Both the position numbers and the translations under genes were made by a program. From the NCBI RefSeq assembly GCF_003334785.1, contig NZ_QOWV01000057.1: a DNA stretch of 2,355 nucleotides; one strand, given 5' to 3'. Below the pieces are notes generated by a model. That model made no database searches. It saw only the letters and a program-made list of their open reading frames with translations, and had not been told where the DNA came from. How positions within the stretch are numbered: position 1 is the stretch's first letter; every line of letters starts with the position of its first letter. Source of the DNA: Escherichia coli (GTDB taxonomy: Bacteria > Pseudomonadota > Gammaproteobacteria > Enterobacterales > Enterobacteriaceae). Below, piece by piece: positions 1 through 2,350 of this stretch.

Positions 1-19
1 CGTTATATCCGAAGCCCCC

Positions 20-412
20 GTGGTAAAAAAACGTCCCCGGCGGCCCAACTTCCCTTATGAGTTTAAAATCGCCTTAGTGGAGCAGTCACTGCAGCCCGGA
101 GCCTGTGTGGCGCAGATCGCCCGGGAAAACGGAATCAACGATAACCTGCTCTTCAACTGGCGCCATCAATACCGGAAAGGTGGCCTGCTGCCTTCCGGAA
201 AAAATATGCCGGCACTGCTTCCCGTGACGTTAACGCCGGAGCCGGATAATAAAATCCCGGCCCCCGCACAGGAACCAGAGCAGATAAATACACCGTCCGA
301 CAGTCTGTGTTGTGAGCTGGTTCTGCCGGCCGGAACTCTCAGGCTTAAAGGTAAACTGACGCCGGCGTTATTACAGACACTTATCCGCGAAATAAAAGGG
401 AGCAGCCACTGA
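20..412 (+). CDS. tnpA: IS66-family accessory protein TnpA (orf1), predicted helix-turn-helix DNA-binding protein
   Basis: 130-aa ORF from GTG at 20 to TGA at 410-412. The N-terminus (EFKIALVEQSLQPGACVAQIARENGINDNLLFNWRHQYRKG) fits the HTH pattern of IS66 orf1 and related transposase N-terminal domains. A Pro/Glu-rich linker follows, then a C-terminal segment (ELVLPAGTLRLKGKLTPALLQTLIREI) resembling the conserved orf1 C-terminus. The reading frame is open all the way to position 2, so the true start could lie upstream of the window, and no clear Shine-Dalgarno precedes the GTG. Confidence 0.85.
   Translation: MVKKRPRRPNFPYEFKIALVEQSLQPGACVAQIARENGINDNLLFNWRHQYRKGGLLPSGKNMPALLPVTLTPEPDNKIPAPAQEPEQINTPSDSLCCELVLPAGTLRLKGKLTPALLQTLIREIKGSSH
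396..401 (+). promoter_or_regulatory. Shine-Dalgarno-like AGGGAG for tnpB, embedded in the 3' end of tnpA
   Basis: AGGGAG at 396-401, 10 nt upstream of the tnpB ATG at 412-414. Confidence 0.5.
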
Positions 413-759
413 TGATATCTCTCCCTGCAGGTTCGCGTATCTGGCTGGTTGCAGGTATCACCGATATGCGAAATGGCTTTAACGGCCTGGCATCAAAAGT
501 TCAGAACGTCCTGAAGGATGACCCGTTCTCCGGACACCTGTTCATCTTCCGCGGACGCCGGGGTGACCAGATAAAAGTGTTGTGGGCTGACAGTGACGGA
601 CTGTGCCTCTTCACCAAACGCCTGGAGCGGGGCCGCTTCGTCTGGCCAGTCACCCGTGACGGCAAGGTGCACCTTACTCCGGCTCAGTTATCCATGCTTC
701 TTGAAGGTATCAACTGGAAGCACCCGAAACGAACGGAACGCGCTGGAATCCGCATATAA
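412..759 (+). CDS. tnpB: IS66-family accessory protein TnpB (orf2); unrelated to the IS200/IS605 TnpB nuclease
   Basis: 115-aa ORF, ATG 412-414 to TAA 757-759. The sequence (RIWLVAGITDMRNGFNGLASKVQNVL...PFSGHLFIFRGRRGDQIKVLWADSDGLCLFTKRLERGRFVWP) is characteristic of IS66 orf2 as I recall it from enterobacterial IS66 elements. The start overlaps the tnpA stop (ATGA), as is typical for the family. Confidence 0.92.
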   Translation: MISLPAGSRIWLVAGITDMRNGFNGLASKVQNVLKDDPFSGHLFIFRGRRGDQIKVLWADSDGLCLFTKRLERGRFVWPVTRDGKVHLTPAQLSMLLEGINWKHPKRTERAGIRI

Positions 760-771
760 CCCGTTGTAAAG

Positions 772-777
772 TGAGGA
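772..777 (+). promoter_or_regulatory. Shine-Dalgarno-like GAGGA for tnpC
   Basis: tGAGGAt at 772-778, immediately before the ATG at 779-781. The spacing is short (1-2 nt after the core), so this is only a moderate-confidence RBS. Confidence 0.45.
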
Positions 778-778
778 T

Positions 779-2350
779 ATGGACACCTCACTTGCTCATG
801 AGAACGCCCGCCTGCGGGCACTGTTGCAGACGCAACAGGACACCATCCGCCAGATGGCTGAATACAACCGCCTGCTCTCACAGCGGGTGGCGGCTTATGC
901 TTCCGAAATCAACCGGCTGAAGGCGCTGGTTGCGAAACTGCAACGTATGCAGTTCGGTAAAAGCTCAGAAAAACTTCGTGCAAAAACCGAACGGCAGATA
1001 CAGGAAGCACAGGAGCGAATCAGCGCACTTCAGGAAGAAATGGCGGAAACGCTGGGTGAGCAATATGACCCGGTACTGCCATCCGCCCTGCGCCAGTCTT
1101 CAGCCCGTAAACCGTTACCGGCCTCACTTCCCCGTGAAACCCGGGTTATCCGGCCGGAAGAGGAATGCTGTCCTGCCTGTGGTGGTGAACTCAGTTCTCT
1201 GGGATGTGATGTGTCAGAGCAACTGGAGCTTATCAGCAGCGCCTTTAAGGTTATCGAAACACAACGTCCGAAACAGGCCTGTTGCCGGTGCGACCATATC
1301 GTGCAGGCACCAGTACCTTCAAAACCCATTGCACGCAGTTATGCCGGAGCGGGGCTTCTGGCCCATGTTGTCACCGGGAAATATGCAGACCATCTGCCGT
1401 TATACCGCCAGTCAGAAATATACCGTCGTCAGGGAGTGGAGCTGAGCCGTGCCACACTGGGGCGCTGGACAGGTGCTGTTGCTGAACTGCTGGAGCCGCT
1501 GTATGACGTCCTGCGCCAGTATGTGCTGATGCCCGGTAAAGTCCATGCTGATGATATCCCCGTCCCGGTCCAGGAGCCGGGCAGCGGTAAAACCCGGACA
1601 GCCCGGCTGTGGGTCTACGTCCGTGATGACCGTAACGCCGGTTCACAGATGCCCCCGGCGGTCTGGTTCGCGTACAGTCCGGACCGGAAAGGTATCCATC
1701 CACAAAATCACCTGGCCGGTTACAGCGGTGTGCTTCAGGCCGATGCTTACGGTGGTTACCGGGCGTTATACGAATCCGGCAGAATAACGGAAGCCGCGTG
1801 TATGGCTCATGCCCGGAGAAAAATCCACGATGTGCATGCAAGAGCGCCCACCTACATCACCACGGAAGCCCTGCAGCGTATCGGTGAACTGTATGCCATC
1901 GAGGCAGAGGTCCGGGGCTGTTCAGCAGAACAGCGTCTGGCGGCAAGAAAAGCCAGAGCCGCGCCACTGATGCAGTCACTGTATGACTGGATACAGCAAC
2001 AGATGAAAACACTGTCGCGTCACTCAGATACGGCAAAAGCGTTCGCATACCTGCTGAAACAGTGGGATGCACTGAACGTGTACTGCAGTAATGGCTGGGT
2101 GGAAATCGACAACAACATCGCAGAGAACGCCTTACGGGGAGTGGCCGTAGGCCGGAAAAACTGGATGTTCGCGGGTTCCGACAGCGGTGGTGAACATGCG
2201 GCGGTGTTGTACTCGCTGATCGGCACATGCCGTCTGAACAATGTGGAGCCAGAAAAGTGGCTGCGTTACGTCATTGAACATATCCAGGACTGGCCGGCAA
2301 ACCGGGTACGCGATCTGTTGCCCTGGAAAGTTGATCTGAGCTCTCAGTAA
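779..2350 (+). CDS. tnpC: IS66-family DDE transposase TnpC (orf3)
   Basis: 523-aa ORF, ATG 779 to TAA 2348-2350. It has an N-terminal heptad-rich coiled-coil region with the IS66-typical FGKSSEKL motif (nt 953-976). A CxxC...CxxC zinc-finger-like pair follows (CPAC at 1169-1180, CRC at 1283-1291). Candidate catalytic residues are HADD (D at 1550-1555), QADAYGGY (D at 1742-1744) and NNIAEN (E at 2123-2125). Length and domain order match IS66 transposases. Confidence 0.95.

Follow-up and report, generated by a model that had tools for sequence, protein, structure and literature searches.

The one-base tnpA-tnpB overlap of an ISCro1-type IS66-family element in Escherichia coli and its probable role in translational coupling

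One base is common to the tnpA stop and the tnpB start

The 2355-base stretch of Escherichia coli DNA analysed here (the window) is the inside of an ISCro1-type insertion sequence (IS) of the IS66 family, with the three genes tnpA, tnpB and tnpC. The junction of the first two is best explained as the standard tnpA-tnpB joint of a three-gene IS66-family element in its ISCro1-clade variant, at which TnpB is probably made by termination-reinitiation after TnpA. The overlap of the two genes is in itself already known: judged from the RefSeq annotation and from the family description, it is a routinely annotated hallmark of the family, present here in a -1 variant with tandem stops.

The junction reads ...AGC AGC CAC TGA TGA TAT CTC... 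(t410 g411 a412 t413 g414 a415), and the last base of the first tnpA stop codon is also the first base of the tnpB start codon (Table 1). This common base, claimed in the initial annotation, is read directly from the DNA, and the RefSeq annotation (PGAP) of identical copies gives the same base as the end of tnpA and the start of tnpB; a 1-nt overlap is annotated also in copies that are 93-97% identical. The initial annotation had called the overlap ATGA. This string does exist at 412-415, and its TGA does lie in the tnpA frame, but that TGA is the second of the two tandem stops, and the overlap actually used is the 1-nt TGATG. The AGGGAG resembling a Shine-Dalgarno (SD) sequence that had been noticed upstream of tnpB is where it was expected, within the Lys-Gly-Ser codons of tnpA and separated from A412 by nine nucleotides, with a duplex energy of -7.6 kcal/mol towards the anti-SD. 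ATG 412 is the first ATG, GTG or TTG past the preceding stop in the tnpB frame (TAA 352-354), and a scan of the window revealed no promoter-like and no terminator-like site on the + strand between tnpA and tnpB.

ATGA and TGATG are the two classic forms of termination-reinitiation coupling. A ribosome terminating tnpA translation at UGA 410-412, or at the reserve stop UGA 413-415 if it reads through the first, would sit on AUG 412-414; the SD-like AGGGAG upstream would keep the small subunit on the mRNA, and translation would restart on tnpB. The output of TnpB would then follow the translation of TnpA, both accessory proteins would be made in a fixed ratio, and they would be two separate proteins, with no TnpA-TnpB fusion. 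The 1-nt overlap itself would be derived from the 4-nt ATGA of the family, with the stop now in the codon before the ancestral one. While the arrangement, the identity with annotated copies and the family-wide conservation described below are observed, we infer from these sequences that the translation of tnpA and tnpB is actually coupled, and how strongly.

Conservation of the overlap among relatives

The junction was compared among 78 loci for TnpB relatives, with one genome sampled per species; to these we added 80 loci from viral or prophage contigs and ten E. coli copies at 73-97% identity. This collection contained 75 distinct junction sequences from Alpha-, Beta- and Gammaproteobacteria and a few other groups; the loci are interrelated, and the counts given here do not represent independent events. 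A 4-nt overlap (NTGA) is present in 66 of the 75 junctions (58 ATGA, 5 GTGA and 3 TTGA), and in these 66 the stop stands at the position equivalent to 413-415 of the window. The 1-nt TGATG was found in two (the window and a Paraburkholderia element) and a 7-nt overlap in three, while four come from damaged-looking copies with frameshifts, nonsense mutations or a lost stop. An overlap of some length is thus retained in 71 of the 75 junctions. The reading frame of tnpB is always -1 with respect to tnpA, although the C-terminal tail of TnpA varies widely in sequence and length, and the first methionine of TnpB is nearly invariant in the alignment of homologues.

The 1-nt form marks the ISCro1 clade. 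In RefSeq, copies of this clade (93-100% identical) carry the 1-nt overlap, whereas ISEc23-, ISEc43- and other IS66-type elements of E. coli have the 4-nt one, and members of the clade have one extra codon in the TnpA tail in comparison with relatives. Tandem stops are present in at least two more lineages, represented by loci L121 (TAA TGA) and L122 (TGA TGA), again with a stop in the codon before the ancestral TGA. Among intact-looking copies, an earlier stop occurs only in the codon directly before the ancestral stop (the clade of the window, L058, L121 and L122). Earlier stops are therefore seen only where a -1 overlap results and never further upstream, as selection for the overlap predicts.

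The SD behaves differently from the overlap. A strong SD (at or below -6 kcal/mol) precedes tnpB in only 20% of the junctions, with a median energy of -4.3 kcal/mol as opposed to a background of -2.7 kcal/mol, while enterobacterial relatives keep a purine-rich SD motif at the position of AGGGAG despite different C-terminal residues of TnpA. Sequence comparison thus indicates that the conserved feature is the overlap and not the SD, the latter being a lineage-specific addition. Conservation of the overlap together with a strong SD in only a fifth of the junctions fits termination-reinitiation coupling, since most relatives have little else with which to start tnpB. The earlier view that the arrangement is typical of translational coupling gains from this comparison, because overlap and frame relation are conserved family-wide even where an SD is missing.

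Two further observations concern relatives of the two genes. In two E. coli loci that are 93-95% identical around the junction (L081 and L082), the N-terminal half of TnpA, before the conserved core, is strongly different in sequence (complete protein 216 aa in place of 225 aa), while the junction and tnpB are nearly identical, a pattern that suggests mosaic or recombinant tnpA genes. Some database entries for TnpB are 136-180 aa long (P0001, P0050 and P0105), and two of them, P0050 and P0105, carry foreign Pfam domains (thioredoxin, PF00085, and ParE, PF05016); these long entries are probably chimeric or over-extended gene calls at the borders of IS insertions.

Alternative explanations of the junction

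Coupling at such overlaps has been documented elsewhere. Pairs overlapping by ATGA or TGATG were coupled in 13 of the 14 cases tested (4 of 5 in E. coli, one of them only to about 60%; PMC6728339), and in the orf121/tnpA pair of IS91, where the overlap is found in 80.6% of isoforms, removal of the TGATG overlap lowers expression 2.9-fold (PMC13181058).

A different route to the same dependence, compatible with reinitiation, is that coupling works mainly by unmasking of RNA structure: ribosomes arriving at the end of tnpA would melt a hairpin that hides the SD of tnpB, and new ribosomes would load there (facilitated de novo initiation). As the principal mechanism we hold this to be rather unlikely. 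A two-tier hairpin of -18.1 kcal/mol is indeed predicted at the junction (Table 1), with the stop and start codons in its loop and the AGGGAG paired to CUCCCU in tnpB codons 4-5 (Leu-Pro). In three sequence contexts, 99% of the predicted ensemble has the SD paired; the AUG is unpaired in 77%. Among 18 members of the clade, the stems pair in register in 74.6% of cells as opposed to 35-53% when the partners are slid, one compensatory change, made up of two synonymous substitutions, turns C388:G435 into G:C in L002 and L113, and a comparable sequestration has been proposed for IS91 (PMC13181058). Against these points, the z-score of the hairpin is only -1.2, and opening the region 394-426 costs 10.8 kcal/mol, which is less than the 15.2 +/- 3.5 kcal/mol of random 33-nt windows of the element. 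RNAalifold, applied to the same 18 members, returned no consensus hairpin at the junction, and their covariation was only marginally above that of shuffles (19 of 500), for a structure that had been derived from one of the aligned sequences. Family-wide, pairing between cognate upstream and downstream segments barely exceeded that of non-cognate ones (p = 0.05), and the complementarity arises in part because the SD (GGAG) meets the conserved Leu-Pro codons (CUNCCN). We therefore claim no evolved structure here; the predicted hairpin may be a helper of coupling and is not an established element.

The overlap might also reflect mere compaction, with tnpB translated independently from its own SD and the common base devoid of regulatory meaning. 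We consider this unlikely, yet much of what speaks for it is also what weighs against termination-reinitiation coupling. The SD of the window is good and ideally spaced, and the AUG is mostly unpaired in the prediction, within a start region that is cheaper to open than the element average, so some independent initiation on tnpB is possible. Overlapping pairs are not always coupled, as bioBF is initiated fully independently and menDH to about 40% (PMC6728339). Overlaps of -4 and -1 are the commonest spacings of co-directional E. coli gene pairs (PMC10666635), for which reason a single overlap means little on its own. The ATGA is also partly automatic, since the conserved Met-Ile N-terminus of TnpB (ATG ATN) yields it, and the motif alone is no proof of selection for coupling. 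Finally, the mutual relatedness of the loci, already mentioned, diminishes the weight of the junction counts. The case for coupling therefore rests on a frame that never changes and on the lack of earlier stops, and not on the tetranucleotide alone. Under compaction one would have to account for an overlap and frame retained in 71 of the 75 junctions, about 80% of which have a weak SD or none, for earlier stops confined to the adjacent codon in intact-looking copies, and for an SD that is paired in nearly all predicted structures of the window.

The formation of a TnpA-TnpB fusion by programmed -1 frameshifting late in tnpA, like that of OrfAB in IS3 and IS1, is hardly credible and was rejected. 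The frame of tnpB is indeed -1, and the 19-codon open zone of this frame does contain a single-slip tetramer, A_AAA(G), at 394-397, but the tetramer varies between members of the ISCro1 clade (ATA/ATG codon) and is missing from relatives, the hairpin abuts it instead of standing 5-8 nt downstream, and the overlap of the two genes is a single nucleotide. As had been stated initially, no slippery heptamer of the IS3 type (X_XXY_YYZ) is present at the junction; none occurs in 355-411, the only zone in which the tnpB frame is open. The accompanying expectation that no fused product is made agrees with the relatives, in which no slippery site is conserved, the tnpB frame is open upstream of the ATG for a variable 0-153 codons (0-1 in several) and TnpB starts with a conserved Met. 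In the tnpA frame just two heptamers exist, A_AAA_AAA at 25-31 and A_AAA_AAT at 199-205; at both, the tnpB frame is closed and a shift meets stops. The run of seven A at 25-31 was discarded as a programmed slip site, being present only in ISCro1 and L120 and leading, after a -1 shift, to termination after 9 codons; it is probably just a pair of Lys codons. It is located at the boundary of the N-terminal extension of TnpA and the conserved core.

Comparison with known systems

The organisation of the window is that of IS66, IS679, ISEc8, ISEc23 and ISCro1, in which gene content and gene order are identical, tnpB overlaps tnpA in the -1 frame and tnpC follows about 20 nt later. The ISCro1 clade departs from the usual IS66 pattern by its 1-nt TGATG with tandem TGA TGA in place of the 4-nt ATGA, by the extra codon in the tail of TnpA and by a TnpA of 225 aa. 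The work of Han et al. from 2001 and of Gourbeyre et al. from 2010, like ISfinder, is said to take the IS66 overlap as suggesting translational coupling; in the open full-text literature we found no paper that states or tests coupling in IS66.

The closest tested parallel in a mobile element is orf121/tnpA of IS91, which shares with the window a 1-nt TGATG overlap inside the element, an SD before it and a predicted RNA structure around the start (PMC13181058). IS91 is unrelated, however; its transposase is of the HUH type, the downstream gene of its pair encodes this transposase and the upstream product is an inhibitor (PMC13181058), whereas in the window both overlapping genes are accessory and the transposase gene, tnpC, is separate. 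Coupled pairs of chromosomal operons are likewise co-directional, overlap by -4 or -1 and have an SD within the upstream gene; their coupling can be strict or partial and disappears as the distance grows. They differ in being operon genes, often for subunits of one complex. With the frameshifting elements IS3 and IS1 (OrfA/OrfAB) the window has in common two consecutive IS open reading frames (ORFs), the second in the -1 frame, but it has no slippery heptamer, its overlap is 1 nt, its second ORF begins with a conserved ATG of its own, and two proteins are to be expected.

These comparisons refine the usual remark that ATGA suggests coupling, in that the overlap is conserved and the SD is optional. 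For annotation, -1 variants with tandem stops are to be anticipated in the ISCro1 clade, and whoever expresses TnpB alone should expect a poor yield if tnpA is not translated.

The start of tnpC

The initial annotation had contrasted tnpB with tnpC, which it gave an independent start after a 19-nt gap. The gap is there, between the tnpB stop (TAA 757-759) and ATG 779, and its length uncouples the two genes, whereas no SD is found at a usable spacing. Reinitiation is nearly abolished at gaps of about 20 nt (PMC10666635), and published distance data for E. coli give a reinitiation loss of 80-90% or greater at 38 nt, which makes the contrast between tnpB and tnpC reasonable. Among 52 representative relatives no SD at a usable spacing was detected before tnpC (median -0.9 kcal/mol as opposed to -2.4 kcal/mol for controls). 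The only SD-like motif before tnpC in the window, GAGG, is too close to the ATG to work. In addition, a hairpin is predicted in which AAGUGAGG (769-776) pairs with CCUCACUU (786-793), leaving the tnpC AUG in the loop.

An alignment of the relatives anchored at the tnpC start codon has information maxima at -35 to -33, at -13 to -10 and at -7, corresponding to the arrangement TTGnnn-N17-TAnnnT-N6/7-ATG, which resembles a sigma-70 promoter. It occurs in three sequence-distinct clades, in which the distance to the tnpB stop ranges from 19 to 92 nt. A simple promoter score of at least 7 was reached by 87% of the 52 representatives and by 7% of control ATGs; in an unanchored scan the best site lay 5-8 nt before the ATG in 32 of 52, as opposed to 3.4% expected. 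At five further loci an in-frame ATG stands 6-7 nt past the site, downstream of the ATG first assigned, and position -1 is a pyrimidine in 43 of the 52 representatives. The corresponding candidate promoter of the window (Table 1) is weak, with 7 of 12 matches, and a consensus scan of the window with a threshold of 9 of 12 gave no hit; the idea of a tnpC promoter thus rests on comparative geometry and not on the match of the window itself. With this geometry, transcription would start at the A of the tnpC AUG and the mRNA would be leaderless.

Tentatively, and with less than even confidence, we propose that IS66-family elements consist of two expression modules, TnpA and TnpB being tied to each other by the overlap and tnpC being transcribed as a leaderless mRNA by means of a conserved sigma-70 promoter inside the element. 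On this proposal the 19-nt gap may be a promoter discriminator and not a ribosome-binding site, GAGG 773-776 may be no functional SD, and the predicted hairpin 769-776/786-793 may silence tnpC on read-through transcripts. If true, a leaderless tnpC would account for the way in which an abundant IS family holds its transposase at a low level and shields it from external transcription. No description of a leaderless tnpC or of an internal promoter in IS66 was found in the searchable literature.

A conserved GTAAAC-like motif before tnpC was also considered as an internal copy of the terminal inverted repeat, that is, as a transposase-binding site; this was rejected as the main interpretation, given that the element ends (GTAAGCGTC...) share only GTAA with it. 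In betaproteobacterial loci (e.g. L024, L034 and L058), GTAAAC occurs twice about 20 nt apart, once over the tnpB stop (TTGTAAAC) and once as GCGTAAACT before tnpC, and the first copy doubles as the -35-like hexamer TTGTAA.

Identity and extent of the element

Over its whole length the window is 100% identical to IS66-family copies in many E. coli strains, on chromosomes as well as plasmids, and matches to it are present in 2906 of 5426 complete E. coli genomes. In identical copies the RefSeq names of the products are 'IS66-like element accessory protein TnpA', IS66 family accessory protein TnpB and 'IS66-like element ISCro1 family transposase'. Profile searches agree with these names: TnpA matches NCBIfam NF038385 (2.7e-55, 186.9 bits, cut-off 150; profile positions 80-189 of 190), TnpB matches NF033819 (5.2e-38, 128.9 bits, cut-off 50) and Pfam PF05717 (IS66 Orf2-like, 5.4e-40), and TnpC matches NF033517 (2.4e-143, 477.9 bits, cut-off 180). 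The window thus contains proteins of the TnpA, TnpB and TnpC types, the tnpB start lying over the tnpA stop in the -1 frame and tnpC following about 20 nt on, as in three-ORF IS66 elements.

An identical chromosomal copy, locus L001, contains the window at its positions 1501-3855. Its complete tnpA (1235-1912; 678 nt, 225 aa) starts 266 nt upstream of window base 1, so the window was cut inside tnpA, and GTG 20, where the list of ORFs begins the gene, was rejected as the tnpA start; the tnpA frame is open from the first bases, and GTG 20 is an artefact of the window edge. With 225 aa, the ISCro1-type TnpA is long and has an extra N-terminal part in comparison with the TnpA of many relatives (126-157 aa).

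Table 1. Positions of genes and of observed and predicted signals in the window
Feature	Position	Strand	Basis
3' part of tnpA (IS66-like accessory protein TnpA)	2..412	+	NF038385; RefSeq coding sequence in L001
Predicted RNA hairpin; outer stem 386-391/432-437, inner stem 397-402/421-426 plus 404-405/419-420	386..437	+	Minimum free energy -18.1 kcal/mol, z -1.2
SD-like AGGGAG in tnpA codons Lys-Gly-Ser, 9 nt (403-411) before the tnpB ATG	397..402	+	Sequence
First tnpA stop TGA; A412 common with tnpB ATG 412-414 (1-nt TGATG overlap)	410..412	+	Sequence, RefSeq
tnpB (IS66 accessory protein TnpB, 115 aa), -1 frame relative to tnpA	412..759	+	PF05717, NF033819
Second in-frame tnpA TGA (tandem stop); with ATG 412-414 makes the family-typical ATGA	413..415	+	Sequence
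Candidate sigma-70-type tnpC promoter: -35-like TGGAAT 744-749, 17-nt spacer, -10-like TAAAGT 767-772, 6 nt to A779	744..772	+	Geometry conserved in relatives
Spacer between tnpB and tnpC, 19 nt; contains GAGG 773-776, 2 nt from the ATG	760..778	+	Sequence
tnpC (IS66-family transposase, ISCro1 type, 523 aa)	779..2350	+	NF033517; RefSeq annotation

IS66 elements with three ORFs have terminal inverted repeats starting with GTAAGCG and produce 8-bp target duplications. The window does not reach the ends of the present element; the right end in L001 is ...GAGTCGCTTAC, and GTAACCGGCTC is found upstream of tnpA, while the ends of relatives are those given above for the comparison with the GTAAAC-like motif. 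An IS3-family element (IS600) cuts the ISCro1 copy in two in several E. coli O-group strains, and one annotation of such a split copy also gives an 'AL1L pseudoknot'.

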